64,000 nucleotides of DNA from Candidatus Poribacteria bacterium (GCA_965198235.1 OZ240248.1:192001-256000), one strand, 5' to 3'. Shown: positions 11,627 through 57,920, counted from the first letter of the stretch. Made by a program: numbers and translations. The notes: generated from the sequence alone by a model not told the origin.

Positions 11627-11683
11627 CCAAAACACAATAACCCGTTTGTGGGAGGGGTGTTTTTGCTTGGGTGTTTCCCCCGA

Positions 11684-12493
11684 TTATGTCAAGGTAACAA
11701 CGTCCTTTTTAACGATCTCTTTCGTGTCATAGTGACCCGCCTGGGAGATAAGTTCCAGCGTTTCCGGTGACAATCGTGTCCTAACCTCCTCCGGCACCCG
11801 ACTCTCACCACGGTGTTGCGGTCTGTAGCGTAAGGTCAGGACGCAACGATATCGGTCTTTCGGCTTCCAAGGCAGCGCACCGTGCGTCAAGAGTTCAGAG
11901 ATAATCACCATATCCCCTGCCTTTGGCGTGACGTTAACGACCCCTTGTGGAATATCATTGGCATCTTCAATCCTTCCGTTGTTATAGAGGTGTTCAGGAC
12001 GATCAAAAAGGGTTTTGTGTGTACCCGGAACAACCAACAACCCACCGTCTCCGGGATGCACATCGTACAGGTAGGGAAAAACGACAAAGTCATCACAAAA
12101 GATTCGACCGTTTCGGACCTCATAACGATTGGCGTGCCATCCGAAATCCTCTCGTGCGCAGTGCAAGCGTAGTCCTTCCGCCGACTCTGACACACCCGCC
12201 CGATCCGCAATCATAGTTCCACGCATCAACTGCGGTTTGTTATTCGTCAGTTCCTTAATAATGGGCCACGTTGATCGATGCAGTGTGAGGGCTTCTAAGG
12301 GTTTCGCAAAGGCAAAACCGTTTGGGAGGTTTTTTGCACTGGAGTCAAATCCGGGGGGGAGCTCTTCGGTAGGTGTGTTGATATATTCACTTGCTGCTTC
12401 TTGCGCTGCTTTCAACTCTTCGTCGCTCAGAACATTCTTCAGGTGAAGGTATCCGGTGACATCAAAAAGATAACGTTGTTCAGGGGTCATCAT
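11684..12493 (-). CDS. PhyH family dioxygenase
   Basis: MTPEQRYLFDVTGYL, GGLLVVPGTHK, LTHGALPW. Confidence 0.8.
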   Translation of the reverse strand: MMTPEQRYLFDVTGYLHLKNVLSDEELKAAQEAASEYINTPTEELPPGFDSSAKNLPNGFAFAKPLEALTLHRSTWPIIKELTNNKPQLMRGTMIADRAGVSESAEGLRLHCAREDFGWHANRYEVRNGRIFCDDFVVFPYLYDVHPGDGGLLVVPGTHKTLFDRPEHLYNNGRIEDANDIPQGVVNVTPKAGDMVIISELLTHGALPWKPKDRYRCVLTLRYRPQHRGESRVPEEVRTRLSPETLELISQAGHYDTKEIVKKDVVTLT

Positions 12494-12677
12494 AGTGCTT
12501 TACTCCTTTGGGATTTACGCAATTGAATGTAGGTGTTTTTGCTTGGGTGTTTCCCTCAGGTTGAACATCAAGTGAACCCATAGCCATCAATTTAGTGCCG
12601 TAGGTTGGGTTGAACGGATTAACCTCTCCTAAAATCGACAGCTATGGATTGAACCTCGAGTGAAACCCAACACAAAT

Positions 12678-13943
12678 CTAAGCTGATGCTACCCACACGG
12701 GCCAGTCGCCCTCCTGTAGCTGCTTGAAAATCTTGTCAAAGGCTTCACTACCATCATCTTCCCATTCATCCAAACGCACACCGGGAGCATAAGATTCGTC
12801 CACGCCCTGCTTCATGAGGCGTTCAGCCTGTTGTAGATTCCGGTAATAGTGCTTTACACCACCGGGTAAAGTGATAACAGAGATGTGCCGATTCCATGTC
12901 GGTTCAGGCGTTTGGGAATACCGTTTCACAGCATCTTCATCCAACACAACACCGAGACCCAGACCGTCAGGTACCTGCATAAATCCACGTTGGACTTTGT
13001 GGGGTGTAACAATTAGGTCGTTTTCATAAGCGTGGCTCGCAGTGACACCCGGTATGGTGGCTGTCGGTATCACGGCTCCGAGATGACACGCAAATGCCGC
13101 CGTAATTCCAGTACCGACATACTGAAGCAGGATCGGTGTATTCGCAGCAGCAAAAGCCCATCCCGATGCCAAAGCACTTTTGACATTCTCGTGGCTACAC
13201 AGCGCACCGTCAAAATCGCCTGCCCGAAGTCCAATCCACGGACCAGACGGGTTGTCGCGATGCACCCTCCCGGATAACCCGACACCGTGTAGATAGAACG
13301 GAATCCGAATCTCTTGATGTAACCGCCGCCAGCCCTCTACGTCGTAGGCGAAAATCGGTTCTTCGAGACCCTTGACGACGGGAATTTTCTCAAGTTCTCG
13401 TAGGATGGGTAGTGCTTTCTCGACATTAATTAACGAGCCGTTGAAGTCGAACTCCACGCGAAAGTCAGGAGGCGCGACTTCTTGAATCGCATTCGATTGC
13501 TCGACAACATCGTAGAAGGCGCGTGCCTTACACTTCAAGCCTCGGTATCCACGTTCAGCAGCGACTTGAACCTCAGCGGCGGTGTCTTCAGGAGACATAC
13601 ACGGCATCCACCACCCCATCGCAACCCACTGCCGAACCTGTTGTCCCATCAGTTTCCATGCTGGCAAACCGAGGTGCTTCCCCATCAGGTCGTAGCACGC
13701 CATGTCGAGATTAAAACGTCCTTCACCCATGACGTGGTCGAACGGATTCGTACCGAGATACGCATCCAGTACCTCCTGATCAAACGGCGGTCCTGGGTTC
13801 TCTGCGAGACCGACGAGACCGGTATCGGTATAAAATTTATAGACCGTGACCAACTCGGTCATCGCGAAGTGGTAGTATCTCTTGCGAATCCGTTCCTCGT
13901 AAGGCACATGCAATGGAATCGCTTCAATCTCGGTAATTTTCAT
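12678..13943 (-). CDS. Mandelate racemase/muconate lactonizing enzyme (enolase superfamily)
   Basis: MKITEIE N-terminus, KxK (KCKAR), DFN, EEP and PDGLGLGV motifs. Confidence 0.8.
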   Translation of the reverse strand: MKITEIEAIPLHVPYEERIRKRYYHFAMTELVTVYKFYTDTGLVGLAENPGPPFDQEVLDAYLGTNPFDHVMGEGRFNLDMACYDLMGKHLGLPAWKLMGQQVRQWVAMGWWMPCMSPEDTAAEVQVAAERGYRGLKCKARAFYDVVEQSNAIQEVAPPDFRVEFDFNGSLINVEKALPILRELEKIPVVKGLEEPIFAYDVEGWRRLHQEIRIPFYLHGVGLSGRVHRDNPSGPWIGLRAGDFDGALCSHENVKSALASGWAFAAANTPILLQYVGTGITAAFACHLGAVIPTATIPGVTASHAYENDLIVTPHKVQRGFMQVPDGLGLGVVLDEDAVKRYSQTPEPTWNRHISVITLPGGVKHYYRNLQQAERLMKQGVDESYAPGVRLDEWEDDGSEAFDKIFKQLQEGDWPVWVASA

Positions 13944-14249
13944 CGGAAAAATTAGGCAAGTCCCTAACTCTTTTAGCGTTGGTGGGATTGCCTACCTCCT
14001 TATCCCTCTTGGTGGCTGTCCGTTGCTTTGGACTCTCTTTGCTGTTGTTTTTTAGGCTTCCGACTTATTCTATCAAAACCCACGAAAAGAATCAAATCTA
14101 AAATACTGAAATTGGTTCACTCCTCTTCCCGTAACGGTGGAACTCTCTCCCTACACACGTTCTATCCGAAACAATGTGCCAGAAGTGTATTATCATACAT
14201 ACAACTTGCCGGATAAGCATTTTAACGCGTGCTTTCCAACCGGAAAAAT

Positions 14250-14278
14250 TTGATTTTTAAGTCCAAATGTAGTATAAT
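14250..14278 (+). promoter_or_regulatory. Putative sigma70 promoter upstream of the MITE and hicAB
   Basis: TTGATT-N17-TATAAT. Confidence 0.55.
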
Positions 14279-14288
14279 TAAAATTAAC

Positions 14289-14410
14289 CAGGACTTACGC
14301 ATTTCCTCTTAAAGTCCCCCTGATAAGGGGGATTTAGGGGGTTAAAAACACTGAAATTGCCACTTTTTGCGTGAGAATGCCCTATATTTGCTCAATTTGC
14401 GTAAGTCCTA
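14289..14410. mobile_element. MITE
   Basis: Perfect 12-bp TIR AGGACTTACGCA (14290) / TGCGTAAGTCCT (14409); TTAAC direct repeat on both flanks. Confidence 0.75.
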
Positions 14411-14565
14411 TTAACATTAAATGGCAACTGAAGTGCCACCGTTTATTCAGACCAAAAATTAGCAAAGTTAAGACAAGTTTTTTCGCTCAAATTTTGTATG
14501 AGCATCTATGGACATAATGTATTCACATATATCAACCTATTGTCAAAAGCTAAACGTCTCTACCC

Positions 14566-14754
14566 ATGAAGATTAGAGAATTGATTAAACTGGTTGAAAA
14601 AGATGGATGGTATCTCATTCGAACACGAGGGAGCCATAGGCAGTTCCACCATCTAACGAAACCTGGAACCGTAACCGTTGCCGGAAATTTAGGCGAAGAT
14701 GCAACCCCTGGAATGCACAACAGTGTTCTTAAGCAAGCAGGGCTTAAGAATTGA
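14566..14754 (+). CDS. hicA: HicA family toxin
   Basis: 62 aa; DGW..RTRGSHRQFHH..KPGTVTV. Confidence 0.88.
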   Translation: MKIRELIKLVEKDGWYLIRTRGSHRQFHHLTKPGTVTVAGNLGEDATPGMHNSVLKQAGLKN

Positions 14755-14767
14755 TAGAGGTAAACTT

Positions 14768-15025
14768 ATGCAGTACGTTGTTCTTTTTGAAAAAGGTGAA
14801 AATAGTTACGGTGCTTATGTACCGGACCTCCCCGGCTGTGTCGCAGCAGCAAAAACATTAGATGAAGTGCAAGTATTGATTGCGGAGGCAATTGAATTCC
14901 ATATTGAAGACCTGCGAGAACAAGGGGTAGTCATTCCCCCCCCATCACCGCTGTCAGATATTCAAGGAGCTCTGCTTGAATCATCCCAACATCTATTTCC
15001 AGCTTTAATCACTGCAACGGTCTGA
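14768..15025 (+). CDS. hicB: HicB family antitoxin
   Basis: YGAYVPDLPGCVAAAKTLDEV...EAIEFHIE; RBS GAGG before ATG 14768. Confidence 0.88.
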   Translation: MQYVVLFEKGENSYGAYVPDLPGCVAAAKTLDEVQVLIAEAIEFHIEDLREQGVVIPPPSPLSDIQGALLESSQHLFPALITATV

Positions 15026-15172
15026 TTGCATTTGCTGGCGAACTCACATTTTGATAACGTTTTTTCTCTCGAATTTAATTGAAAAATAACCTACAATTGG
15101 AGCGTGGATGCCAACGCGTCACACCGATAAACTATAAACTAAACTTCAAGGACTACCGTTGCGGAGCAGGCA

Positions 15173-15454
15173 TTGAAAAACTGGTCGGGATTGCTCCAAT
15201 TTCTATTGTACAGCATCGTGCTCAGCGGTTTCGTCAGGTGTGAGTCGCCTAACCCTCAGAAACAGCCTTATGAAACACTCGTTTTTAAGGTCGATGAAAC
15301 CCGACTTGAGCCTACAGTAACGGATACAACGCTCAGAATCAAAATAGCGGCACCAAAGGATTGGAAAAAAATTGACGATTCAATGCTCACGCAAGTCGTT
15401 TTAATGGATATCAGAAAGAAAAAGGCAGAACAGATTGGGCATCAGGATGCTTAA
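15173..15454 (+). pseudogene. 3'-truncated duplicate of the lipoprotein at 16285
   Basis: Near-identical to the 16285 ORF up to DDSML.QVV, then diverges; the upstream leader is also duplicated. Confidence 0.75.
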
Positions 15455-15494
15455 TCTTTTACCTCAGACGATAGAAAAGTGAGGAAAATCCCAA

Positions 15495-15539
15495 ATGCAA
15501 TCGTTCAAAATTATCGTTGAAAAGCACGAGGAAGGATGA
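15495..15539 (+). pseudogene. Remnant of a HicB-like gene
   Basis: MQSFKIIVEKHEEG* matches the start of the 17366 ORF (MRSFKIIVERHKEG). Confidence 0.65.
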
Positions 15540-15585
15540 TGTGCAGTTGCTGTCTGACGCTTCGCTTTCCATTGGAGGTACGATA

Positions 15586-16212
15586 ATGGCATTTAGCGAT
15601 TTCAAAAAAATCTCTGAAGTTCAAGAAAAATTCAGAATCAAATACACAGCAACTGACTTTTTCAAGGCTGAGGCAGCAAGTGCTCCAGCACACTTTTTGC
15701 AAGAATTCAAGTTTACCATGGAAAACATCAACGTTTTCTCGTCTGAGGCATCCCGCTGTGAATCGATTATCTTTCCCATTTTAAGGGAGACATACAAAGC
15801 ATACGCCGACACTTACGCGCTCTGGATAAGGGAACCGATCACCTACGATGAAACTCTGAGCGGCACGCCGGATTACCTCGTGGCTACAAGATCCGAATTA
15901 GGCATAACTGTTGTCGGAACCCCGTTAATAATATTGGTCGAGGCGAAGAAGAATGACTTTGAGGAAGGCTGGGGACAGTGCTTAGCGGAATTAGTCGCCG
16001 CCCAAAAAATAAACGATGATTTAGATTTCCCGGTGTATGGTATTGTCAGCGATGGAACATGGTGGCAATTTGGGAAACTTGTCGCCGATGCCTTCACCCA
16101 AAACAGAACGAGTTTTAGCATAGACAATTTGCCAGACCTCTTTGGGGCGATTAATGCTATCTTCAAAGCAGCAAGTGAGACAACTGTCACCGAAAAAATA
16201 GTGTATAACTAA
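15586..16212 (+). CDS. Restriction-endonuclease-fold (PD-(D/E)xK, HsdR-N-like) hypothetical protein
   Basis: SGTPDYLV...VEAKK...GWGQCLAELVAAQ; RBS GGAGG before ATG 15586. Confidence 0.65.
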   Translation: MAFSDFKKISEVQEKFRIKYTATDFFKAEAASAPAHFLQEFKFTMENINVFSSEASRCESIIFPILRETYKAYADTYALWIREPITYDETLSGTPDYLVATRSELGITVVGTPLIILVEAKKNDFEEGWGQCLAELVAAQKINDDLDFPVYGIVSDGTWWQFGKLVADAFTQNRTSFSIDNLPDLFGAINAIFKAASETTVTEKIVYN

Positions 16213-16284
16213 AGTGTGAATGCCAACGCGTCACACTGATAAACCACGAACTGAACCGAAAGGACCACCGGCGCGGAGCAAATA

Positions 16285-16911
16285 TTGAAAAATCGGTCAG
16301 GATTTCTCCAAGTTCTATTGTGCGGTATCATCATCAGCGGTTTCGCCGGGTGCGATTCGCCCAACGCTCGGAAGCAGCCTTATGAAACGCTCGTTTTTAA
16401 GGTTGATGAAACCCGACTTGAGCCTATAGTAACGGATACAACACTCAGAATCAAAATAGCGGCACCGAAGGATTGGAAAAAAATTGACGATTCAATGCTT
16501 GCGCAAGTCGTTAACAAAGTAGAGCCTCAACCCACCCCACAGGAACTACAGATAGTGCCACGATGGATTTTCTTGAACGAAAGTTCGCAATCAATGTGTA
16601 TTGTCTCAAGGTTAGATGGCGTGAATATCGCTCCAGATGAAACCTTATTAAATAACCTTAAAACTGCTTACGAAAACCAATTTCCAAATGCAACGGTCCA
16701 GCAGGCAATTTTTATGAAAGATGCCTTTCGCATCCATCAATTAATGGTTATTGCTGCCGATTTTGTACGCATCAAATTGATATGCGACGCACCTGAAACC
16801 CTCGTTTTTGAGGTCGATTACCGCGTCCCCAGAAACGTTTACGAAACTGAACTGCGAGCCATTGAATCATCAATTGGTTCTATTAACCCAATTAACCCAA
16901 TAACCGATTAA
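16285..16911 (+). CDS. Hypothetical lipoprotein
   Basis: Signal peptide ending in lipobox FAGC. Confidence 0.7.
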   Translation: MKNRSGFLQVLLCGIIISGFAGCDSPNARKQPYETLVFKVDETRLEPIVTDTTLRIKIAAPKDWKKIDDSMLAQVVNKVEPQPTPQELQIVPRWIFLNESSQSMCIVSRLDGVNIAPDETLLNNLKTAYENQFPNATVQQAIFMKDAFRIHQLMVIAADFVRIKLICDAPETLVFEVDYRVPRNVYETELRAIESSIGSINPINPITD

Positions 16912-16962
16912 CATGAAACGCTTATAAGTGCATCTTCCAAGCGCGTATCCCAAGGAGGATTT

Positions 16963-17256
16963 ATGTTCAAAAAACTTTCCGCTGTGCTTCTCATCATAGG
17001 AATGTTGTGTGTCATTGGCTGTGCAACGCATACACACAAAATCGGGAACGGAGCACAAGGCACCGATATGATCGAATCACGGCAATGGTATGTGCTGTGG
17101 GGCATGGTGCCGATCAATGATGTTGATACACAGGCCATGGCAGGTGAAGCAACCGATTATAATATCATCACCGAGGTTAACCTGCTTGATGGTGTTATCA
17201 ATGCCTTTGTCGGTAGTGCCTCAATCTATTGCCGCACAGTAACTGTCCTGAAGTAA
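16963..17256 (+). CDS. Bor/Iss-like small lipoprotein
   Basis: Lipobox VIGC, WYVLWGMVP, C-terminal RTVTV; RBS AAGGAGG. Confidence 0.7.
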   Translation: MFKKLSAVLLIIGMLCVIGCATHTHKIGNGAQGTDMIESRQWYVLWGMVPINDVDTQAMAGEATDYNIITEVNLLDGVINAFVGSASIYCRTVTVLK

Positions 17257-17281
17257 CCTATCGCTGGTTCAAACAATCCAC

Positions 17282-17326
17282 GGGCAAAGCCGATATCTCT
17301 TTCACTTTTTGACACTGGCTTTGCCC
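17282..17326 (+). terminator. Hairpin after the Bor-like gene
   Basis: GGGCAAAGCC...GGCTTTGCCC. Confidence 0.45.
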
Positions 17327-17365
17327 TCTCTTAATGAATTTTGACAATCAAAAAGGAAACCCCAA

Positions 17366-17539
17366 ATGCGATCATTCAAGATTATCGTTGAAAGGCACAA
17401 GGAGGGTTATGTCGCCTATCCATTAGGTCTGAAAGGCGTTATCGTGGGGGAAGGGAATACCTACGAGGATGCCGTTGCTAACACCACCTCTGCAATTGAG
17501 TTCCATATTGAAACATTTGGGACGGAAGTACTTGAGTAG
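17366..17539 (+). CDS. HicB-family protein, 57 aa, not in the ORF track; possibly truncated
   Basis: MRSFKIIVERHKEGYVAYPLGLKGVIVGEGNTYEDAVANTTSAIEFHIETFGTEVLE*; RBS AAGGA. Confidence 0.7.
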   Translation: MRSFKIIVERHKEGYVAYPLGLKGVIVGEGNTYEDAVANTTSAIEFHIETFGTEVLE

Positions 17540-17587
17540 GAAATCCTCAGAGCCGGTTTTCTGGAGGGTTATGAGCAAAGCTAAACC

Positions 17588-18661
17588 TTACGGCACTAAC
17601 TGCACTTTAATCGAATCCGCCCCTTTCTGAACCATCTCGAATCCTGTAAGATAGTCCGTCAACGGCAGTTGGTGTGTCACAATATGCTCGACATCGATTA
17701 AACCGCGATGGATATAATCGATCGCCAACGGATACGCATACGGTCCCAAATGCGAACCGTGGATGTTTAACTCTTTCGTGTCTCCAATGATCGTCCAGTC
17801 CACTGTTACCGGTTCCCGCATAACGCTAAATTCGACGAAAGTGCCTGCCTTCCGAATCATGTGCAGCCCCTGCTCAACCGCCTTCGGATGTCCCGTTGCC
17901 TCAATATAGACATCGCAGCCGTAGCCTTCTGTTAAATCCAACACCTCTTGGACAGCATCCGTTTCCGAGGGATTGAGTCCAATATCCGCTCCCAACTTTT
18001 TGGCAACCTCTAACCGTTTCGGCATCAAGTCAATGGCGATGAGTACACCGGGGTTTTTCAACTTCGCTGCACCGATCATACCGAGTCCGAGCGTCCCTGC
18101 TCCCGCAACCACAACGACATCTCCGAACTCAATGTTGCCCCGTTGCACAGCATGGATAGAACAGGCGAGCGGTTCAATCACCGCAGCACTCGCTGTCGGA
18201 ATATCAGAAGGCACCTTGTAAACAAGCGAACGTGCCGGAAACTTCATATAGTCCGCCATGCCACCGTTCACGACCGGTTGAAACCCGTAGATATTGTGGA
18301 CTTGGCAGAGCCAATACTTTCCTGTTCGACAATACCGACACTCCCAACACGGAACTATCTGCTCTGCGATAGCCGCATCACCGATTTCAAGTTTATACTT
18401 CTCACCTGCCCCCGGGCCGAGTTCCACGACTTCACCGATGAATTCGTGTCCTGCAATAACAGGTGCTTCCACATACGGTTTGCGGTGTTCATCGCCCCAG
18501 AAGAGTGGCGCGCCTGTATAACACTTAATGTCGCTCGCGCAAACTCCACACGCGTTTACCTTAATGACAACTTCACCGGGACCTGCCTTCGGCATTGGAA
18601 CCTCTTCGAGACGATAATCCCACGGTTCGCGACACATAATTGCTCGCATCGTTTTCGACAT
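17588..18661 (-). CDS. Zn-dependent polyol dehydrogenase (erythritol/threitol DH-like)
   Basis: GVCASD, GHEF, CWECRYC and GAGTLG motifs. Confidence 0.85.
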   Translation of the reverse strand: MSKTMRAIMCREPWDYRLEEVPMPKAGPGEVVIKVNACGVCASDIKCYTGAPLFWGDEHRKPYVEAPVIAGHEFIGEVVELGPGAGEKYKLEIGDAAIAEQIVPCWECRYCRTGKYWLCQVHNIYGFQPVVNGGMADYMKFPARSLVYKVPSDIPTASAAVIEPLACSIHAVQRGNIEFGDVVVVAGAGTLGLGMIGAAKLKNPGVLIAIDLMPKRLEVAKKLGADIGLNPSETDAVQEVLDLTEGYGCDVYIEATGHPKAVEQGLHMIRKAGTFVEFSVMREPVTVDWTIIGDTKELNIHGSHLGPYAYPLAIDYIHRGLIDVEHIVTHQLPLTDYLTGFEMVQKGADSIKVQLVP

Positions 18662-18925
18662 TTTTTTAACTATAGCCTCCCAGCCTGCTCTCTACTTCGT
18701 TACGAGCAGGTTTTCGATGAGTCTTGATATTCCTTCAGAACCTGTTCAGGCTAAACCTTTTCAGCCCAGCGGGGGTTTTTGCTTGGGGTTTTTGCTTGGG
18801 TATTTCTGCGTATTGATAGGGTGTTTCCCTGCGGATTTCCCTGCGGATTTCTTCAACATCTCTGTAGAGAAACGCACCTCTATACGGGGGTATGCGAAGG
18901 ATCCGCGAAAAAAAAAACAAAGCAC

Positions 18926-18951
18926 GTAGCCCGTAATGTAATGGAGGGCGG
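18926..18951 (+). repeat. GTAGCCCGTAATGTAATGGAGGGCGG REP-like repeat
   Basis: Inverted copy at 19588-19613. Confidence 0.65.
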
Positions 18952-19006
18952 ATTTAAGGAACCCATTTGATAGTCTTAACCCACGTGGTTCCTCCGCAAG
19001 GTATAA

Positions 19007-19519
19007 TTAAAAATGATGCAAGATGTGGTAGGCGGCAATACCGAGCGAGACATGAACGTTCAGGGATGCTCCCGCGCCATACATCGGAAGAAAAATTACC
19101 ATATCACAGGCAGCGAGCGTTCGTTTCGTTACCCCGTGATCCTCGTGTCCCACGACGAGACAGATTTTATCCGGATAGTCTGCCTCATCGTAACGGATTG
19201 ATTGCTTCGTAACTTCTAAAGCACAACTCGTGTAACCATCTGTTTTAAGCGATGCGATTGCGTCTGCTGCCTGCTCTGTGTATCGCCATTTTACCCGTCG
19301 GTGTTTCCCGCGCGCCACTTTGCGCACCAATGGGTGGGGCGGTTGTGCGCTGATACCCGTCAAAATCAGTTCTTTCACACGGCACGCGTCCGCTATCCGA
19401 AACGCGGAACCGACATTCACCGGGTCTTGTACGTCTTGTAGGATAAAAACCAGTTCTCTTTCCGGCGGTTGCACCTGCTTCAGAAAGTCTTTAAGCGGTT
19501 TGCCGCGTAGTTGTTTCAT
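19007..19519 (-). CDS. TrmH/SpoU family RNA methyltransferase
   Basis: QDPVNVGSAFR, VGHEDHGV and SLNVHVS motifs. Confidence 0.88.
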   Translation of the reverse strand: MKQLRGKPLKDFLKQVQPPERELVFILQDVQDPVNVGSAFRIADACRVKELILTGISAQPPHPLVRKVARGKHRRVKWRYTEQAADAIASLKTDGYTSCALEVTKQSIRYDEADYPDKICLVVGHEDHGVTKRTLAACDMVIFLPMYGAGASLNVHVSLGIAAYHILHHF

Positions 19520-19527
19520 CCAAATTT

Positions 19528-19672
19528 TCTAATTTACCTTGCGGTTCGGTGAGGTCGGTTTGGATGTTGACGTTCTTCTCCGTAGACCCGCCCTCCACTA
19601 CGTTACGGGCTACGCGCTTTTCTAAACGCACATCCGACTCTAATTTACCTTGCGGTTCGGTGAGGTCGGTTT
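19528..19672 (+). repeat. Two 34-bp direct repeats (TCTAATTTACCTTGCGGTTCGGTGAGGTCGGTTT) enclosing a REP
   Basis: Identical copies at 19528-19561 and 19639-19672; related inverted copy at 29254-29285. Confidence 0.8.
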
Positions 19673-19755
19673 TATGAAAAAACGTCCATCTTCGTATATT
19701 CAAGCCGGTGCGATGCTTGGAGTTACGATCTCTGTCTTGGAAACTCCATCCAGCT

Positions 19756-20532
19756 TTAAGCTGCCTTACGTTGTATTAAACGTCGTCTCGCGCTTGCACG
19801 TGCAAGCCTGACATCCAACGGGATGTGGTGATAATCACTAATACCGAGGTTAATCGCATGTGCCGTTTCAAGATTGAAGCCCCACTCAATCCATTCCGGC
19901 ATATCCGCTTCTGGAATATCACCGGCGACGATAACCTTCATGATACTGATGCCCTTTCCGAGCGAATAGGCACGTTCGATGTATTCCAGATGTCGGTCAA
20001 AGGGACCGCCTTCTAACATCTTACCCTCTTTATTCGCTGTCGTCAAAATGACTTCAAGTTCTGGATGGTCAATCACCGCATCCATCACAGGACCTGTATA
20101 GATATGCGTGGAACAGCCAATAACTCGAATTGTGCCAGCGGCTTTTGCTTCTCGGAATGCGTCAAGTGCCCCCTCTCGCGATACTAAATCTTCAGGCGAG
20201 GAGATACCGTGCAATAATAGAACATCTAAGTAATCCGTTTGCATTTCCTGAAGAGAACGTGTAATGCTTGCCTTAGCACCTTCATAATCTTTCGCACCGG
20301 TCTTGGTTTGGATGACAACTTCCTCTCGGGAAATTTGACGTACTGCCTCCCCGAGATGCGGTTGACTCCCATAACCTTCGGCGGTGTCCCAGAACGTAAT
20401 CCCTTCCTCAAGAGCCTTTAACATCAGTTTGCCGCCAGCTTCGTAGTTTCCGCAGGTGTTGTTGAGATGCCCTGCCCCAAAGCAGAGGCGTGAAATTTCT
20501 AAACCCGTTTTTCCGTATTCTAAATATTCCAT
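19756..20532 (-). CDS. Aldo/keto reductase
   Basis: GKTGLEISRLCFG, WDTAEGYG, SLQEMQTDYLDVLLLH. Confidence 0.85.
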   Translation of the reverse strand: MEYLEYGKTGLEISRLCFGAGHLNNTCGNYEAGGKLMLKALEEGITFWDTAEGYGSQPHLGEAVRQISREEVVIQTKTGAKDYEGAKASITRSLQEMQTDYLDVLLLHGISSPEDLVSREGALDAFREAKAAGTIRVIGCSTHIYTGPVMDAVIDHPELEVILTTANKEGKMLEGGPFDRHLEYIERAYSLGKGISIMKVIVAGDIPEADMPEWIEWGFNLETAHAINLGISDYHHIPLDVRLARASARRRLIQRKAA

Positions 20533-31168: not shown

Positions 31169-32221
31169 TTATTCTTCAGCTCGAATCGCAATTTTAATCG
31201 CTGTTTCACCTTCAATACGGTAGCCACCGTCAAGTGCCTTAAATCCGTCCCCGACCTGTGAGAGTGGCAGCTGATGGCTAATCATGTCAGCGAACGGTAA
31301 ATCGCTCTGTTCAAGGAGTGGTAAGCCGCGGACAAAGTGCTCATAACTGCTTCCCCAAATAGCCTCGACGCGAAGGTTTTTGCGCATCAATAATTGGTTG
31401 ATGTTAAAATCAATTGAACCCATGTCAACGAAGTGACCGACTTCAACAAAAGTACCACTGCGTCGGGTGTACCCTAATCCTTCCGGCGTGGCAGGGAGAA
31501 AACCTGCACATTCAAAAACAACGTCCGCCCCCTCTTTGCGTGGTGTTTCGGCTTGCACGAGTTCCGTCCGTTCTTCGGCAGTGGTAACTTCCTCAATGTT
31601 AATTGTTACGTCGGCACCGAGCCGTTTCGCGAGTTCTAATCGTCCAGCGGGTCCGCCGACCATAATCACTTTTGCGGCACCGCTCAATTTCGCACAGGCA
31701 AGCGTCACGAGCCCGATAGCACCCGAACCCTGCACAACGACGGTGTCACCGAGTTTGATTTCACCCCGCATTGCGGCGTGAACGCCGATAGTAAACGGCT
31801 CTGTCAGCACAGCAACCTCAGGCGACGCATCGGTTTTGATAAAGCAAGTGTTTGGATAGTTGAGATACATATAATCCGCAAACCCGCCGCGAAAATGTGG
31901 TGCCTCATCTGGATTCCACTGAAAACCGTAAGCACCATAGTTTGTTCCGGGTGCGAAGATAACCCTGTCCCCCTCTTTAACCGGTTTACCCACATAATCG
32001 GTTTCCACATCTTCACCAATCGCTTCAATAATACCGACGTTTTCATGTCCGAGTAACACTTCTTGTTGGAAGCCGTTCTGCCAGTTGTGCAGGTCAGTTC
32101 CGCAGATCCCTGCTAACTCCTGACGGAGCAGCACTGTGTTAGGTTCAGGTTCAGGAACCGGGTATTCACGAATTTCAAAATCTTTGCCGCACGCGACCAC
32201 GGCTCTCCCTGTCCGACTCAT
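31169..32221 (-). CDS. Zn-binding alcohol dehydrogenase
   Basis: GICGTDLH, GHE, GSGAIG. Confidence 0.85.
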   Translation of the reverse strand: MSRTGRAVVACGKDFEIREYPVPEPEPNTVLLRQELAGICGTDLHNWQNGFQQEVLLGHENVGIIEAIGEDVETDYVGKPVKEGDRVIFAPGTNYGAYGFQWNPDEAPHFRGGFADYMYLNYPNTCFIKTDASPEVAVLTEPFTIGVHAAMRGEIKLGDTVVVQGSGAIGLVTLACAKLSGAAKVIMVGGPAGRLELAKRLGADVTINIEEVTTAEERTELVQAETPRKEGADVVFECAGFLPATPEGLGYTRRSGTFVEVGHFVDMGSIDFNINQLLMRKNLRVEAIWGSSYEHFVRGLPLLEQSDLPFADMISHQLPLSQVGDGFKALDGGYRIEGETAIKIAIRAEE

Positions 32222-47283: not shown

Positions 47284-47635
47284 GTTCACCTCCGATACGT
47301 TTACCGTGAGGGGATCCCTCACGTGAGTAACTTTCGATGGAATACCGTTCTGAACTTTCGGTTTCATCAAATTGGGAGAAACCGCTATAAGATTGCCTAT
47401 ATCTTATAATTAAAGTCAAAAAAATGTCAAGTTTTTTGTTTTTTGTCCAATCGCACTGGAATATCCAAACCGCCTCACCCACCGCTGGCGAGGTTTCCCA
47501 ACCTCGCCTCTTCTTTCTCACCCAATGGTCCGCGCACCACCCTCTTCTGTAGGAGGGATCTCCGAATCCCGACGCTTGCTAACCGCCGATCGCTACCCTC
47601 ATTGGATTAAAAATCACATTTTTTACATTTTTTTC

Positions 47636-49086: not shown

Positions 49087-49091
49087 CTTTA

Positions 49092-49445: not shown

Positions 49446-49565
49446 TGAAATCTCTTGTAGAAGGGAATTCTAATTCCTGGGGAAACACCCTATCAAAAAC
49501 ACTCTTAACTGAGAACCGAAAACTGAAAACTAATTCTTCACTTTTCCCAAATTATGCACAGTTTC

Positions 49566-49630
49566 TATCCTAAAGGAGGCGGCGTTTCCTTCCCCGAATA
49601 AATTCGAGGGTTTTCACGCCGAAAAATTTG
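49566..49630 (-). mobile_element. Isolated IS605-type left-end remnant
   Basis: GGCG...CCCCGAATAAATTCGAGGG...CGCCG hairpin organised like the left ends of the two IS; TTCAT at the equivalent position. Confidence 0.5.
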
Positions 49631-51664: not shown

Positions 51665-51687
51665 CGGCGTTATGGGTGCGCGTATGA

Positions 51688-52440
51688 GGAGAGTTTGGGG
51701 GCTACGACCGAAAAGGACCTCGGGGTGCGTTCAGATATAAAAAGAACGTCGAGATGTATGACACAGGAACCGACACATGGGTCAAAAAACGGGATATGCC
51801 AACGCTGCGTGACCACTTCACCATCGCGATCGTTGATGGAAAGATATACATCATCGGTGGGCGTGTTCACGATAAAAGACTTGATGAGCCTGTGGTAACA
51901 GGTCTCGTTGAGGTCTACGATCCGTTAACCAATAAATGGGAGAAGCGCGCAGACATGCCGACAGAACGAGAGGTGACCGATGCTGCCGTTGTAGACGGTA
52001 AAATTTATGTTCTTGGCGGTTATGATAGGCGGAGGGCACCCCGCCTTGCCGAACGTTTTGTTAGAAGTATTGAAGAATATAATCCGAAAACCGACGAATG
52101 GTATCAGCTCCCTGATATGCCAATGTTCAGAGGTTGGTTTGCATCCGTTGCCGTCGATAATGAGATTTATACAATAGGTGGTATTAATCGGGAAATTAAT
52201 CGCATCGGTGATGTTGATGTTTATAATCCAAGCGTTAACAAATGGCGTAAAATAGAGCCAATGACGATCCCAAAAACGACAAGAGCAGTTGTTGTTAAGG
52301 GTACCATCTATGCCTTAGGTGGTCTTGAAAATGGTGGTAAATTGTCGCCAATCGTTGAGGCGTTTGACACCGGTTTTCTGGCAGTTGACCCAAAAGACAA
52401 ACTACTGACACGCTGGGGTGAACTGAAAAAATCCCAGTAA
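51688..52440 (+). pseudogene. 5'-truncated Kelch-repeat protein with LTRWG tail
   Basis: Kelch frame continues upstream of ATG 51754 (FGGYDRKG..VEMYD) to an in-frame stop; no signal peptide. Confidence 0.7.
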
Positions 52441-52446
52441 ACTATA

Positions 52447-52630
52447 TAACCCGAGTTGCCACCTATAGGATTTTAGGTAGGCAGACATTGTGTTTCATGA
52501 AAGAGGTCTGCGCAAGCCTATAGGAAACCTGCGGGACAATATCCGTAGAGGTCTTGTAGCGTAAACTTTCAGTTTGCGCACGGATATGCACAATCTAAAA
52601 GATTATGCTACAAAATGGCAACTTAGGTTA
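52447..52630. mobile_element. MITE-like element
   Basis: TIR TAACCCGAGTTGCCA / TGGCAACTTAGGTTA; contains an inverted GTAGC REP pair. Confidence 0.6.
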
Positions 52631-52838
52631 TTAGAGTCTGTGCGAGCAGCTTTCGTACCTATCCAGTTTATCAAAAAAATAGAAATGTGATATACTGTTT
52701 CATGTCAAGGAAAACATTATGCAGTAAATTATTTAATTTTCTCGCCTACCTAAGCGTGTCGATTAAATTGCTCGTGAGATAACTTATGATGGGAATGTGG
52801 GGACAACCAAATCTGTTCGCGCACCGTGGAGGATCCTG

Positions 52839-53762
52839 ATGGTAGAAAACGATGTTCAACTGATCCATAGAATTTTGTCAGACGATGACGAGGCATTTAG
52901 CATCTTGGTCCAAAAGTACCAAAAGAGTGTTCATGCCCTTGCGTGGCGGAAAGTTAACGATTTTCACTATGCTGAGGAAATTACGCAAGATACCTTCCTC
53001 CAAGCATATAAAAAACTCTCGACCCTCAAAAACCCTAACCAATTTGCGGGGTGGCTCTATGTCATTGCAAATCGACTCTGTATTAATTGGCTCAACAGAC
53101 ACAAACCCGCGATGCAATCGCTGGAGGACACGCCTATGGAAGAAATAGAGGAATCCGCTTATAACCATCATGCCGCAGAACAGCGCGAAGCGGAAGGCAC
53201 CACGTATCGCTATGAAATCGCCCAAAAACTTCTCTCCAAACTGCCGGAGAGTGAACGCACAGTCATGACGCTCTACTATCTTGGTGAAATGACAGCGAAG
53301 GAGATTAGCAAATTCTTAGGCGTCTCCGTAAACACGATTACAAGTCGACTGCGGCGGGCGCGAGAACGTTTACGTCAGGACCAAGAACGCTTGGTTCAGG
53401 AAGTGCTCGGCGGCGTGCAGTTATCCACCAACCTCACCGAGAACATCATGCGGCAGGTCGCCGACGTGAAACCGATACCGCCTCCGGTAGCGAAACCGTT
53501 GCTCCCGTGGGGTGCTTTTGGTATCGCGAGCCTTCTGATTGCCTTGCTGTTAGGCGTGGCCGGCGAATACCTCGTCCGCTTTCAGAGACCGTACAGTTTT
53601 GAGGTAGTCTCCGAACCCACCGTTGAAATTGTTGACACTTTTATCGTTCTCGATGTCGATTCAAAACCCGATGTTCGGTTAAAATTCATAATTCATCCAT
53701 TTTTTTCATATTATGCACCCTTTCCGTCCGTAAAGTGTGTCTTTAATAATGGGGGAATATGA
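52839..53762 (+). pseudogene. ECF sigma-70 factor + TM, extracellular domain deleted
   Basis: Sigma2/sigma4 regions and TM present; homology to the 54327 paralog stops at DSKPDVR. Confidence 0.75.
53708..53756 (+). promoter_or_regulatory. Shared ECF-type promoter motif
   Basis: ATTATGCACCC...AAGTGTGTCTTTAATAAT. Confidence 0.6.
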
Positions 53763-53797
53763 TTACAACGACCTTTAAGATAAAGGAACATATTCGG

Positions 53798-54337
53798 ATG
53801 AGCCTTGCCAACAAAACGTTAGTGTTAGTCGGGGGCTTAGCGTTTGGTTTTCTGTTGTCCTATGCCCAAGGGCTTGTCCCGCAGGACACGCGAACCGAGG
53901 AAAACGCTGTATCACTGAACCCTAATCGACGAACTGCACAAACCGGAAAAGCCGCCACAGTGATCTTAATTGTTAACGCTGCCGACGGGATAATTGGCAA
54001 CGGTAGTGGTTTCTTCGTTCGACGGGATCTGGTTGTTACCAGCGTTCACGTCCTTGCTGGCATTTATGGAGAGTCCCATAATTGGGAGGTAAAGTCGGTT
54101 AACCAACCGATACGGCACACTATCAAAGGTGTCGTGGCGAGCGATCCGGAGCACGATCTGGTTATCTTAAAGGTGGAAGGTAAAGAAGCAGGGGTTCTCC
54201 AACTCGGGGATAGTGATACAATGAAACTTGGCGAAAAGGTTATCGCCGTGGGCACCCACGGGAGTACCCACAAGAATGCGCTGGGTGAGCGCGATCATAT
54301 CTGTTCGCGCATCATGGAGGATCCTGATGGCAGATAA
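53798..54337 (+). pseudogene. 3'-truncated trypsin-like (S1C) serine protease
   Basis: GSGFFV, VTSVHV and HDLVIL present; catalytic GxSGG absent. Confidence 0.7.
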
Positions 54338-57300
54338 CGATGTCCAACTGATCCGAAGAATTTTATCAGGCGACGATGAAGCATTTGGTGTCTTGATCCA
54401 TAAATACCGAAAGGGTGTTCATGCCCTTATATGGCGGAAGATTGGCGATTTTCACTACGCTGAAGAAATTACGCAAGACGTTTTTCTTCAGGTATACAAG
54501 AAGCTTTCAACGCTCAAGAATCCCAATCAATTTGCCGGGTGGCTCTATGTCATTGTGGATCGGCTCTGTATTAATTGGCTCCAAAGACACAAACCTGCGG
54601 TACAATCGCTGGAGGCAACAAGTGCAAAAGAGATAGAGGAATTCTCTTATACCTGTTATGTATCCGAGCAACGCGAAACAGAATCGCTTGATCGTCGGCA
54701 TGCAGTCGTCAAGAAGTTGCTGAAGAAGCTACCGGAGAGTGAACGCACAGTGGTGACACTCTACTATCTCGGCGATATGACAACAAAGGAGATTGGCAAA
54801 TTCCTCGGTGTATCCGTGAACACGATTAAGAGTCGGCTCCGCCGGGCGCGGAAACGTTTATTGGATGACCAAGAACTCTTAGTTCAAAAGGTTCTCGGCG
54901 GTGTACAGTTATCGGAAAATCTAACAAGCCATATCATGCGACAGATCGCCGACATAAAACCAATACCACCTCCGGCTGCGAAACCGCTGTTCCCATGGGT
55001 TGCTTTCGGTACCGCTACCCTTCTAATCACTTTGCTGTTAGGCGCGAGCCAACCCTACCTCACCCGTTTTCAACAACCCTATAGTTTCGAGGCAGAATCC
55101 GAGCCGACCATCGAAATTATTGATGTGCCTTTTACGCTTAATATTGATTCAAAACCGAGTGTCCGGAATCAGGCCGGAAGTGCTGTATCCCCGGGTAAAA
55201 ACAACAGTGCCGGTTTACAGTCTTCTGAAGCGCATTTGACGACCGCTACGGAAACGGATGTGCCCGCTAAATTCTCTACAGCGCAGTGGACACAGGCAAG
55301 TGGCCCCCAAGGGACCCCAATCTTTGATACCTTTGCTGCGTCTGATGGCACACTCTACATTGACACACAAACAGGTATCTACAGATTGACAGCGGATACA
55401 CCTGCATGGACACGCATCAACGCGAATATCCCAACCCCTGGGGGCTATATGTCTATGGCAGAGCATAGCGGCACCCTCTATATCGTTTCTGATGATGAAA
55501 TCTTCACTTCGAGTGATGATGGCGAGACATGGGACGTCTTTTGTCCTCGACCAGAGGGAGATCATCATGTTGGGCTGATCGTAACCGATGCGCCGCAAAT
55601 CACTCCTTCACGAACAGGCATTGCAATGTATCTTGCGTTTCGAGATGAAGGTATTTTCCGATCTACGGATGCTGGCACACGATGGAACTCGTTTAACGAA
55701 GGGTTGTCAGGTAAACGCATTCGCGCAGTGGCAGAAATTGGAAGCGTGGTATTTGCTGGCACAAACAGGGGACTCTACCGTCTCGGCGCAGATCGTTGGG
55801 AGCAGGTGCCAGTGGAAACCTTCAAAACTCCCCGATCCTTTGAAACTGAGGCGTTTGCTGACGTAGACAGCGGATTCTATCGTCTCAACGCAGAACGATG
55901 GGAGCAAGTGCCGGTGCAATTCTCCAATGCTATCCATTTCCTGAAGGTCTTTGAAAACAATCTCTATGTTGGCGTCGGTTCGGATCTGTCTATGTGGCAC
56001 TCGCCTGAAACGAAAAGAGGGATAATAGTAAATCCAAAAGCACTCAGAGGGGCGATTTTCCACTCAGTTGACTTCGGTAAATCGTGGACGGAGATAACGC
56101 CTAAAAATGAGCCTCTCTTTTTTACGGCAAGCACGGAGATAGAGTTCTGGGTTGCTGGCGAGACGCTCATCTTACACGGTTCTGAGCAATTTCGGTCAAC
56201 GGATGCGGGGAAAACTTGGACAAAACTTGATGTTAACACACGTTCCTTAACAGGTCTTAATTCGCGACATATAGGCGTAAACGGTAGGACTTTTTATGCG
56301 GTTGGAACGAACGGGATTTATCAAACCATTGACACCGGTGAATCGTGGCACCCATTTATGGATGGAATCATAGGAACGAAGATAGGAAGTTTGGTGGCAT
56401 TCAACAACCGACTCTATGCGTATACCTACAGTGATATTGCCCAATCAACCGATGCAGGTGAATCGTGGAAAAGCGTTCTGGTGGATTCCAAATCCACACA
56501 GGAAGAGCGGTCTCCCGTTGATTTCTCTTCTAATTCAAACTTGGTGGTCGTAGAGGGTGAGCTTTATGCGATTGCGTCTGAAAAAGAGAATCTGCGTATT
56601 TACCGCTTGTCTACGGATGCCAATGTCTTCGCGCCAGTTCAAGGAATACCCGCTTTTCATACAGAAATACTGTCCACCGAATTATGGAAATCTATTACGG
56701 AAGCCAAATATTTCTCTTTCTTTGATGACGTAGAAATGGATTCTCGGTTGATGAAGGCATTGCGTAGTGCTGCGACCCGTGCGACAACCGGTGGATTTGC
56801 GATCAGTGATGGGACGTTCTACGTGGAATACCAGCGAGTGCTTTTCAAATTGAAAACCGGCGATTCGGAATGGACGAATACGGGATTAATAGACCTCACC
56901 GAACGGTCATCAAGGGGTACACCTTGGAGACAAGGATTCCGGTTGGCTGCTTCAGGGGAGACCGTCTATGTCGGAAAACGAGATGGCACACTGTTTCAAT
57001 CACTTGATGAGGGAGACAGTTGGAGAGATATTACACCGAATCTTCCACTCCACTTTACCCACTTCAAAGAGATCGTCTTTATCGGGTCAACGGTTTACGT
57101 CGCAACGGACGCAGGTGTCTTGGCTTCACAGAACGGCGAACACTGGCGCGTGCTCACCGATGAAATGGGGACCCGTCCCGTCATAGATAGATTCACTGTC
57201 GATCATACCAACGTTTATGGTGCTGGTAATGCAGGGGTCTATCGCTTGGATGACTATAGCAAGTGGGAACAGATTTCTCCAAGTATTCGGGGTACAATTG

Positions 57301-57386
57301 ACGCGCTTGTCGTCGGTAATAATAAACTTTACATTGATCTTGAGCAAGGTGGGATGTCTCATATCCCGCTTGAAGAATTACAATAG
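54327..57386 (+). CDS. ECF sigma-70 factor fused to a TM helix and extracellular BNR/Asp-box propeller
   Basis: AEEITQDVFL, LPESERTVVTLYY..KSRLRRAR, TM helix, repeated S.D.G..W; RBS GGAGG. Confidence 0.85.
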   Translation: MADNDVQLIRRILSGDDEAFGVLIHKYRKGVHALIWRKIGDFHYAEEITQDVFLQVYKKLSTLKNPNQFAGWLYVIVDRLCINWLQRHKPAVQSLEATSAKEIEEFSYTCYVSEQRETESLDRRHAVVKKLLKKLPESERTVVTLYYLGDMTTKEIGKFLGVSVNTIKSRLRRARKRLLDDQELLVQKVLGGVQLSENLTSHIMRQIADIKPIPPPAAKPLFPWVAFGTATLLITLLLGASQPYLTRFQQPYSFEAESEPTIEIIDVPFTLNIDSKPSVRNQAGSAVSPGKNNSAGLQSSEAHLTTATETDVPAKFSTAQWTQASGPQGTPIFDTFAASDGTLYIDTQTGIYRLTADTPAWTRINANIPTPGGYMSMAEHSGTLYIVSDDEIFTSSDDGETWDVFCPRPEGDHHVGLIVTDAPQITPSRTGIAMYLAFRDEGIFRSTDAGTRWNSFNEGLSGKRIRAVAEIGSVVFAGTNRGLYRLGADRWEQVPVETFKTPRSFETEAFADVDSGFYRLNAERWEQVPVQFSNAIHFLKVFENNLYVGVGSDLSMWHSPETKRGIIVNPKALRGAIFHSVDFGKSWTEITPKNEPLFFTASTEIEFWVAGETLILHGSEQFRSTDAGKTWTKLDVNTRSLTGLNSRHIGVNGRTFYAVGTNGIYQTIDTGESWHPFMDGIIGTKIGSLVAFNNRLYAYTYSDIAQSTDAGESWKSVLVDSKSTQEERSPVDFSSNSNLVVVEGELYAIASEKENLRIYRLSTDANVFAPVQGIPAFHTEILSTELWKSITEAKYFSFFDDVEMDSRLMKALRSAATRATTGGFAISDGTFYVEYQRVLFKLKTGDSEWTNTGLIDLTERSSRGTPWRQGFRLAASGETVYVGKRDGTLFQSLDEGDSWRDITPNLPLHFTHFKEIVFIGSTVYVATDAGVLASQNGEHWRVLTDEMGTRPVIDRFTVDHTNVYGAGNAGVYRLDDYSKWEQISPSIRGTIDALVVGNNKLYIDLEQGGMSHIPLEELQ

Positions 57387-57409
57387 ATGCAGTTTCCGAA
57401 TTTCCACCT

Positions 57410-57920
57410 GCCGCCCTGATAAGGGGAATTTAGGGGATTGAGAATTCCCGCTGCCAATTGACCACCGCTTCCCGCTGGCGAGGTTTCCTAACCTCAATTC
57501 TTCCGTCCAAACCCCACACCGGTCGCTGGCGAGGGTTCTTGGGGAAAAAGAAACGCCCAAGCAAAAACCCCTATCAAAAACACCTCGACTCTTCTGTTGC
57601 GATCTCCCGATCGCGCCCCTTGAAGCTTCTTGTGGGAGGGGTTTGTAACCCCGACCTCTTTCATCATCCGATGCATCTGCGATTCAGACGAACATCGCTG
57701 GGGTTCTCATTTCCCACCGACCACTGACAACCCTCCTCTGTAGGAGCGAGTGTTTTTGCTTGGGTATTTTCCCATGCTCGCGATATCTTTCCTATATTTA
57801 CAGAGATGTCACCCCTATGGGGTTCAAGATAATCACCGAGACGTATTTCTACACAGATGGGGTTCTCCTCTGGGGCTGACGGCTGATGGCTGATGGCTGA
57901 CTCCTGACCGCCGACTCCTG
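57410..57920. repeat. Dense cluster of REP-like palindromes and GCTGA(C/T)G heptamers
   Basis: At least five repeat families also seen elsewhere in the window. Confidence 0.7.

Follow-up and report, generated by a model that had tools for sequence, protein, structure and literature searches.

How does one sequence of about 20 nt come to lie inside palindromic repeats that are otherwise unrelated to one another? The question is raised by a 64,000-nt window of Candidatus Poribacteria DNA (G000:C1:192001-256000), in which six intergenic loci carry the same short module within or beside hairpins of the repetitive extragenic palindromic (REP) type. The genome under study, G000, is a 96%-complete Poribacteria metagenome-assembled genome (MAG) with 48% G+C, assembled into two contigs of 5.12 Mb and 44 kb. 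A 678-aa protein encoded in the window has Candidatus Poribacteria MAGs as its best named relatives, at 71-87% identity. The original prediction, made from the window, treated the module as a patch that a reverse transcriptase (RT) or primase-polymerase copies from a dedicated template into broken hairpins. The finding is real and more extensive than that prediction recognized, and the proposed enzymes are absent. On balance, the module is probably a discrete, two-ended micro-element that is mobilized in trans and inserted at GRRG^NY in single-stranded or extruded repeat DNA.

Structure of the module and its insertion target

A scan of the window for TGTTTTTGNNNGGG with at most one mismatch yields 10 matches against 1.68 expected, and none of 100 dinucleotide-preserving shuffles reaches 10. 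Eight of these matches fall in the six predicted loci, all of which are present where they were reported, while the remaining two, at 31507 and 55190, look like chance. Across the genome, the core pattern [GT]GTTTTTGNNNGGG has 393 matches (248 CTT, 111 ATA, 12 CTG, and 22 other) that group into about 253-265 loci. In G000, module words outnumber reversed-word controls 15-60-fold, as with TTTTTGCTTGG, which occurs 265 times vs 7. The 14-mer GGTTTTTGCTTGGG undercounts the module, as single units starting with TG are missed.

The unit consists of a 13-nt head, [T/G]GTTTTTG(CTT/ATA/CTG)GG, and a tail, G[T/C][G/A]TTTC (GTGTTTC), that is usually followed by 3-5 further letters such as CCCA, TTCA, or TTC. 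The whole unit measures 21-26 nt, and the complement of the module reads GGAAACACCCAAGCAAAAACA. Loci were parsed into heads and tails with our own regular-expression tokenizer, and the commonest form is a single head with a single tail (127 of 265 loci). The remaining loci are arrays, which also contain 10-12-nt tail-like units (GATTTCTGCG, GATTTCCCTGCG) and partial heads (TATTGCTTGG, TATTGATAGG). At 26 loci (25 with one head, one with two) no tail was detected; these are tail variants or chance matches, or they carry a second nested module.

As predicted, the module has neither terminal inverted repeats (TIRs) nor target site duplications (TSDs), and its two ends, TGTTTTTG... and ...TTTC(CCCA/TTCA), show no inverted-repeat relationship. 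It also contains no hairpin, except for an occasional 6-bp CTTGGG/CCCAAG pairing that uses the unit ending. A derivation from the fused ends of a longer insertion sequence (IS) was considered and set aside, since no long element bounded by head and tail was seen. An adapter or assembly artefact is excluded, as the module is found in more than 40 further genome assemblies from the genus, in run contigs of several studies, and in no fewer than 120 contigs of public metagenomes.

Empty paralogues were paired with filled loci by our own heuristic, which requires an exact left 9-mer and an exact right 8-mer within 12 nt. It finds some partner for 148 of 236 parsed loci, and 80 pairs were kept after nested and loose pairings were dropped. 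At 79 of these 80 loci, the module stands directly after GG (46) or AG (33). Host bases are lost, as the original prediction had noted: 2-3 nt are gone in 53 of the 80 (TT 21, GCG 11, TTG 6, TTT 5) and none in 2, with a range of 0-8. The 3' end, which had been described as ragged, does vary in the letters after TTTC; it is less ragged than claimed, with TTTC followed mostly by TTCA (13 of the 80), TTC (10), CCCA (7), or a C run. The TTCA and CCCA endings recur across unrelated hosts. Judged by eye only, the letters after TTTC do not covary with the CTT/ATA head type, as fold-back copying might produce, or with the complement of the left flank.

Over 46 distinct contexts, the consensus of the empty site is GRRG^NY, with G at position -1 in 45 contexts, a purine at -2 in 46 and at -3 in 40, G at -4 in 30, and a pyrimidine at +2 in 44. 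The left-flank rule is replicated in 79 non-nested copies from 80 public metagenome contigs, where G stands at -1 in 72 and a purine at -2 in 74; these copies have 56 distinct left 10-mers. With at least 46 distinct host contexts, the module behaves as a secondary insertion, as the original prediction proposed, and not as a part of one longer repeat consensus.

The hosts in G000 exist in both empty and filled states. The palindromic REP GGCGAGG-loop-CCTCGCC is empty at about 84 loci, with a 7-8-nt loop, and longer and module-holding at about 35. The host GT[AG]GGAGGGG-TTTGTAA-CCCCGA has 58 empty and 23 filled copies, 8 of the latter in one orientation and 15 in the other, in line with the predicted occurrence of both orientations. 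The family GGAGCGAG-CTGTG-CTCGCGA, to which the REP at 57751 belongs, has 44 empty and 12 longer copies. Empty and module-holding copies are likewise present among REPs of the type linked to REP-associated tyrosine transposases (RAYTs; CCCCAGCGGGGCGACATGTGTATAG), in a hairpin with a 15-bp stem (TTAACCATCAACTCG...CGAGTTGATGGTTAA) that holds the module in its 3' arm, and in a leader-like element of ~100 nt. Within each REP host family, the position of the module is fixed.

The leader-like element (GTAGCCCGTAATGAAATGGAGGGCGGATCTACGG ... CCGAACCGCAAGGAAAATTAAAAA) occurs at 18921-19012 of the window and at 41 other places in G000 (among them C1:476574 and C1:1196493), with 42 copies under a strict regular expression. 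It ends right at the start codons of unrelated genes, and as a module host it takes the insert after GGAGG. An Rfam search of the window matched only two tRNAs and gave no match at this element.

The predicted association with palindromic repeats holds for the window loci and is looser across the genome. An exact inverted repeat of at least 6 bp directly flanks 58 of 265 loci, compared with 5% in two controls; therefore, a hairpin host is an enrichment and not a rule. Hosts that lack a flanking inverted repeat are other dispersed repeats. What stays constant is that the host is repeated and that the left flank is rich in purines.

Filled and empty sites

Orthologous regions from 29-40 congeners with ~80-86% DNA identity allow filled and empty sites to be compared, a comparison that the original prediction had proposed. 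At 11658-11677 on the + strand, a single module with head TGTTTTTGCTTGG and tail GTGTTTC replaces the 7-nt loop TTTGTAA of a REP hairpin whose arms are GTGGGAGGGG (11648-11657) and CCCCGA (11678-11683). None of 29 congeners is filled at this site: one to three empty REPs are found in 12, a REP-free spacer of 5-6 nt in 14, and an 18-nt non-REP spacer in one, while 2 could not be anchored. Only G000 is filled.

The second locus holds a single module that ends in CCCTCA (12534-12558, +) and follows GTAGG (12529-12533). Its host reads GTAGG|TTG|GGTTGAAC, of which ~2-3 bases are lost. The 29 congeners divide into 13 in which this host is empty, 5 that are filled, 10 that show a different spacer or lack the host, and 1 that could not be resolved. 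One orthologue, L020, is empty while L016 and L023, with near-identical flanks, are filled. The site is also spanned by an RNA-library contig from another study. In a different species, the orthologue L027 (G041) of the spacer at window 12494-12677 contains a long module array in a different host, GCAGATCGCATTTGGG|..., and the related L018 has the GCAGATCGCATTTGGG host empty.

A graded series is seen at 57550. In G000, the loop of a REP (GCTGGCGAGG at 57525-57534 ... CCTCG at 57583-57587) is filled by two nested units at 57535-57582 on the - strand, namely an outer ATA unit whose head/tail junction holds a complete GG...CTT unit. At the orthologous place, G006 has an empty REP, GGCGAGGTTTCTAACCTCGCC, with loop TTTCTAA, and G024 has one ATA unit. 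The extra unit of G000 relative to G024 is exactly one complete 22-nt GG...CTT unit at the head/tail junction.

The cleanest insertion lies at 49481-49501 (-), where a single ATA-type module of 21 nt has a heptamer-repeat run on one side (...GTTAAGAG, read along the module strand) and a REP foot on the other, with no host bases lost. The orthologue in G018 (L067) is uninterrupted, ...TCTGG|CTCTTAAC..., and G000 differs from it by a clean 21-nt insertion. Heptamer tandem runs adjoin REPs or modules at 49503-49535 (AACTGAG/AACCGAA/AACTGAA) and at ~57870-57940 (GGCTGAC/GGCTGAT/TCCTGAC), and similar runs occur at the orthologous spacers of relatives.

At 18774-18855 (+), an array of three heads and four tails ending in TTCA occupies a RAYT-type REP flanked by CCCAGCGGG (18765-18773) on the left and ACATCTCTGTAGAG on the right. 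In three runs from two studies, contigs connect 18755 with 18856 through TTTTCAGCCCCAGCGGGACG, which is the empty REP; this variant also has two small deletions nearby. In relatives, the whole REP is missing at this site. The same holds at the sixth locus, a single module with variant tail GTATTTTCCCA at 57751-57774 (+) between REP arms GTAGGAGCGAG (57740-57750) and TGCTCGCGA (57775-57783), where the five relatives that retain both neighboring genes have no REP at this position.

For four of the six window loci, the corresponding position is empty in an orthologue or at the strain level. The series of zero, one, and two units at 57550 and the strain-level empty allele argue for change in place. 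The uninterrupted relatives quoted in the original prediction also exist within the window on the + strand: an empty REP of the family at 11648, GTGGGAGGGGTTTGTAACCCCGA, at 57632-57654; the paralogue of the 12534 host, GTAGGTTGGGTTGAAC, at 12600-12615; and an empty REP of the GCTGGCGAGG family, GCTGGCGAGGTTTCCCAACCTCGCC with loop TTTCCCAA, at 47484-47508. A second empty member of the latter family, with loop TTTCCTAA and a shortened 3' arm, lies at 57473-57495 (+). The hosts do not need the module, and the genome G016 contains 70 and 18 empty REPs of two host families and only 9 modules. RNA-library contigs (run X4) stop at or span modules; such contigs cannot show transcription, strand, or small RNA.

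Filled hosts could also descend from a few old events, in which the motif entered each host family once or a few times long ago, multiplied through the spread or conversion of the host repeats, and was conserved for a function, for example as a protein-binding site. Such a history is improbable. It would explain why the register is fixed within a host family, why relatives lack the whole REP and not the module alone at 18774 and 57751, and why conservation at 12534, a filled site shared by six species, is higher in the module (0.91 identity) than in the 45-nt flanks (0.76 and 0.63). It would also fit the recurrence of at least one flanking 12-mer three or more times in the genome at 227 of 265 loci, a weak test because 253 of 1000 random 12-mers recur as often. 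However, the 46 distinct empty contexts include 6-7 loop subtypes of one REP family, each with its own loop remnant, and resident REPs that are empty in congeners are filled in G000. The unit series at one orthologous REP and the strain-level empty allele speak against it as well.

Gene context also bears on a conserved function. According to a crude open reading frame map, 189 of 262 loci are intergenic, in a genome of which 13.5% is intergenic. On the same map, the loci show no preference among tandem, divergent, and convergent spacers, which occur as in the background, and no bias in orientation relative to genes (75 vs 59). Both results argue against a function at the transcript level.

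Nesting, distribution, and candidate enzymes

The head/tail junction of a resident unit is itself occupied by further units. Of the 265 loci of G000, 170 have one head and 95 have 2-9 heads, and head and tail counts per locus are correlated (r = 0.83). All 32 arrays with two heads and two tails (20) or three of each (12) form balanced brackets, in which H is a head and T a tail: HHTT 14, HTHT 6, HHTHTT 6, HHHTTT 4, and HHTTHT 2. Whole units inserted at resident head/tail junctions would give exactly such brackets. CTT and ATA units are mixed in any order, and the same 43-nt array is found in at least 8 copies of the TTAAAGCACGAG hairpin.

Over all 95 arrays with at least two heads, the head and tail counts agree in 37, are one apart in 42, and are further apart in 16. 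The unbalanced forms include HHTTT (9), HHT (6), and HHHTT (6), which means that slippage or deletion also acts. Together with tandem 10-12-nt tail units, these forms are what would be expected if units arose and expanded in place by slippage from T-rich hairpin loops. As the sole cause, a purely local minisatellite is already contradicted: the same 21-nt sequence occurs in 46 unrelated contexts and in more than 40 species, and empty sites contain no precursor. This origin is hardly credible.

A second, unrelated module, composed of (AATGTAATACAAGGAATGGA)1-2 and then a hairpin (TTTAGTCTATTCCCAGACTAAATCC)1-2, lies inside the head of the first, between TTTTTGC and GGTGTTTC, at 10 of 12 loci. Therefore, three layers can be distinguished, namely the REP, then the first module, and then the second. 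Loci of the second module outside the window include C1 2070050, 3727188, and 4368104 of G000 (minus-strand coordinates).

As counted with the pattern TTTTTGNNNGGGNNTTTC, the module is restricted to one genus of sponge-associated Poribacteria. Within this genus, 250 copies were counted in G000 and 28-186 in six of the seven congeners sampled, with none in the closed genome G052; low-copy congeners have 9-44, with 9 in G016. In other genera of the same family there are 0-2 copies (26 genomes) and in other families of the order 0-3 (47 genomes), and the 73 genomes outside the genus are at the level of a reversed control pattern, which gives 0-2. The mix of variants also differs between lineages: CTG dominates G003 (25 of 44) and is rare in G000 (12 of 393), where CTT dominates. 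A conserved sequence whose copy numbers and variants are specific to the lineage usually points to an element that is kept uniform by its copying machinery, and ongoing conversion could also produce this pattern. Among viral collections, a single 78.7-kb IMG/VR contig has the exact 19-mer (L153:13317-13335). This copy follows GTAGGGG and stands beside heptamer repeats, a Poribacteria-like context, and the contig may be a prophage or a misfiled bacterial contig.

The enzymes that the original prediction invoked are not found. RVT_1, the RT family, has no match in G000 or in the module-rich closed genomes G004, G006, G014, G018, and G024, and it has 2 matches in G016, which has 9 module copies; control searches gave matches in 3 of 14 reference genomes. 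No match to Ku, Prim-Pol, or AEP primase (PF02735, PF09250, PF01896) was obtained in G000, in a search that did not extend to LigD-specific models. The idea of an RT or primase-polymerase patch is therefore unsupported, and these families are rejected as agents.

In that model, the enzyme would copy a dedicated short template onto the 3' end at a hairpin nick, and stuttering would produce arrays. On the G/T-rich strand, the 5' start, which adjoins a host G, is indeed constant and the 3' end varies more, and head units of 13 or 15 nt do recur in tandem. However, heads and tails balance as nested units instead of forming runs of a single unit, and the order of CTT and ATA units is free. Nor was a source or master locus found, in a search that was neither systematic nor exhaustive. 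With RT absent from module-rich genomes and present in a low-copy one, templated patching is very improbable.

The only candidate family found in the genome is that of the HUH/Y1 transposases. G000 has six such genes, of which three are IS200/IS605-like tnpA genes with a tnpB-like neighbor and three are RAYT-like. The RAYT-like genes (C1:3853757-3854101, 606918-607262, and 1898775-1899119) have GCACTCCAGCGGAGTGCTATGTCTATAGAAA REPs on both sides. These are of the type that hosts the array at 18774, although the flanking copies themselves lack modules. A link to RAYT/HUH nicking is possible. As a marker that discriminates module carriers, Y1/RAYT was rejected, as it is present in all 41 genomes examined.

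The evidence for a discrete, two-ended element rather than an open-ended patch consists of the recurrent 3-4-letter endings, the GRRG^NY target, and the matched numbers of heads and tails. Such an element would be moved at the DNA level by a trans-acting activity that it does not itself encode. On this reading, whole units have been inserted directly after a purine-rich GRRG, with the orientation set by the target strand, at the cost of 0-3 host bases and in rare cases as many as 8. The targets are nearly all in REP-type hairpins and other dispersed repeats, and the host repeat would supply the structure that so small an element cannot carry. The head/tail junction of a resident unit is itself a target, which leads to nesting and to arrays that are later altered by slippage. 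The chemistry is tentatively assigned to HUH-type cut-and-join (HUH/Y1, RAYT, or IS200-type) on single-stranded DNA in hairpin repeats. This is a best guess that falls somewhat short of probable.

Several observations weigh against this account. No enzyme could be linked to the module: all 41 genomes searched encode Y1 transposases, the module-free G052 and the low-copy G016 among them, and in module-rich G024 the only Y1 match is weak and interrupted by a stop. Subterminal hairpins such as those at IS200/IS605 ends are absent from the module. If an HUH mechanism acted on the lagging strand, a regional strand bias would be expected; no strand switch is seen along the G000 chromosome (139 vs 114 loci), although GC skew defines the replichores poorly there. 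Head/tail balance fails in 58 of 95 arrays. At five or more loci, a unit sits in the opposite orientation at a head/tail junction with a left flank of ...A[CT]AC instead of GRRG, and the target rule is therefore not absolute. Because the species have diverged by ~15-20% in DNA, insertion into a REP and replacement of a REP by a filled copy look the same, and both the empty-paralogue pairing and the token parsing are heuristics of our own. Finally, in 61 of 78 cases the module begins with the same base as the lost host segment, which can be read as junction microhomology and favors a copying mechanism.

Strand counts of TTTTTGNNNGGGNNTTTC are 136 forward vs 114 reverse in G000 and 135 vs 51 in G018. 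The asymmetry in G018 could reflect replication direction or recent bursts.

The microhomology leads to the main rival, an enzyme-free copy-choice or short-patch conversion. A nascent ...RG(T/G) end would switch at 3-nt microhomology to another module copy, copy it, and return, and the module would have spread because hairpin repeats stall replication forks. In addition to the matching first base, this process would account for the small loss of host bases without TSDs, the variable letters after TTTC, the failure of any enzyme to covary with the module, and identical arrays within one host family, such as the 43-nt array of the TTAAAGCACGAG hairpins. Nevertheless, it is somewhat unlikely. The TTCA and CCCA endings recur in unrelated hosts and are not donor-specific flanks, GRRG^NY is more specific than 3-nt microhomology requires, and arrays grow by whole units. 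The clean 21-nt insertion at 49481 involves no loss, and the module is absent from G052 and scarce in G016 despite the many suitable hairpin repeats of the latter.

Elsewhere in the window, an element at 14290-14410 is bounded by the inverted repeats AGGACTTACGCA and GCGTAAGTCCT. In the bin 14124-14407, summed contig depth is 1,271 to 90,521 in all four runs, compared with tens to hundreds elsewhere. This extreme depth points to a highly repeated element that resembles a miniature inverted-repeat transposable element (MITE).

Relation to known elements and significance

The closest likeness is to the small dispersed repeats (SDRs) of heterocystous cyanobacteria, which reportedly nest in one another and whose source study is Elhai et al. 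2008 (Genome Res 18:1484). The cited accounts, as far as they were available, describe SDRs as dispersed sequences of ~20-21 nt, possibly mobile, with function and mechanism unknown (PMC5861425, PMC4390886, PMC13756078, PMC2884548), that are tandemly repeated in variable copy number (PMC2884548). One of these accounts places the insertion of the 21-nt SDR5 exactly between the third and fourth bases of the highly iterated palindrome HIP1 (PMC4390886), and in another, SDR-like repeats are confined to Nostocaceae among HIP1-enriched cyanobacterial genomes (PMC5861425). Compared with these descriptions, the module is similar in being non-coding, 21-26 nt long, and present at ~250 loci, within the range of ~20-27 nt and tens to hundreds of copies. 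It too occurs singly (170 loci with one head) and in arrays (95 loci with 2-9 heads), inserts precisely at a fixed position in palindromic repeats, and is restricted to a lineage. It differs in its phylum, Poribacteria as opposed to the Nostocaceae of the SDRs, in its hosts, which are REP hairpins and other dispersed repeats and not HIP1, and in its GRRG^NY target with 0-3 nt lost. Likened by descriptions and not by sequence, the module appears to work like an SDR without being a member of that class, because phylum and hosts differ.

Bacterial interspersed mosaic elements combine palindromic units with further short motifs that are conserved. The hosts of the module are REP-like, and three RAYT-like genes of G000 are flanked by REPs. 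Several hosts have the 5' GTAG tag described for REPs in the part of the literature available (PMC3733652). The module itself is not a REP, nor a REPIN, the hairpin formed by paired REPs, because it is not palindromic and is not the repeat that flanks RAYT-like genes. Furthermore, it lies inside hairpins at a fixed position in either orientation and nests in itself, and the presence of RAYTs does not track it. Nor is it a MITE, since TIRs and TSDs are lacking and its targets lose 0-8 nt.

Site-specific insertion into REP hairpins has reportedly been described for IS1397 and ISKpn1 (Clement 1999; Tobes and Pareja 2006), and the IS110-family elements ISPpu9/10 and IS621 also target REPs. These elements are 1-1.5 kb long and encode their own transposase, unlike the tiny module, for which no long element bounded by head and tail was seen. 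IS200/IS605 elements and the related palindrome-associated transposable elements (PATEs) have no TIR or TSD, insert 3' of a short specific sequence in fixed orientation, and use single-stranded hairpin DNA. They need subterminal hairpins at both ends and are at least 100 nt long. The module shares the lack of TIRs and TSDs and the fixed position after GG or AG (79 of 80, with at least five opposite-orientation exceptions). It differs in its length of 21-26 nt and its loss of target bases, and no regional strand bias was seen in G000. The absence of subterminal hairpins sets it apart from IS200/IS605 derivatives.

An undescribed, transposition-like mechanism is also conceivable but unlikely. 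In such a mechanism, a trans-acting enzyme would write a fixed oligonucleotide of ~24 nt into GRRG^NY of extruded hairpin DNA, and all structural recognition would come from the host repeat and none from the element. Recognition of the host repeat would allow the element to be far smaller than any known pair of transposon ends. The element could nest in itself and carry further modules between head and tail, and the enzyme would be either an HUH-type single-strand transesterase used in a new way or a member of an unrecognized family. If this is true, cyanobacterial SDRs could be other products of the same kind of process.

Mobile-like elements of ~20 nt have been on record since 2008 without a mechanism and, in the passages available from the cited sources, are reported only from heterocystous cyanobacteria (PMC5861425, PMC13756078). 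A literature search for Poribacteria DNA repeats, combined with palindromic or RAYT, found no paper, and one may exist outside the searched library. The Poribacteria module is a clear case from an unrelated phylum, with a defined target and nesting of whole units. Filled and empty alleles occur at the same sites between species and between co-occurring strains, and dozens of closed genomes are available in one genus with copy numbers from 0 to ~250. These features make the question of mechanism testable by comparative genomics and strain-resolved reads. In practical terms, modules inflate intergenic repeats and break short-read assemblies, with both RNA and DNA contigs stopping at them, and they alter the loops and stems of REP hairpins beside genes.

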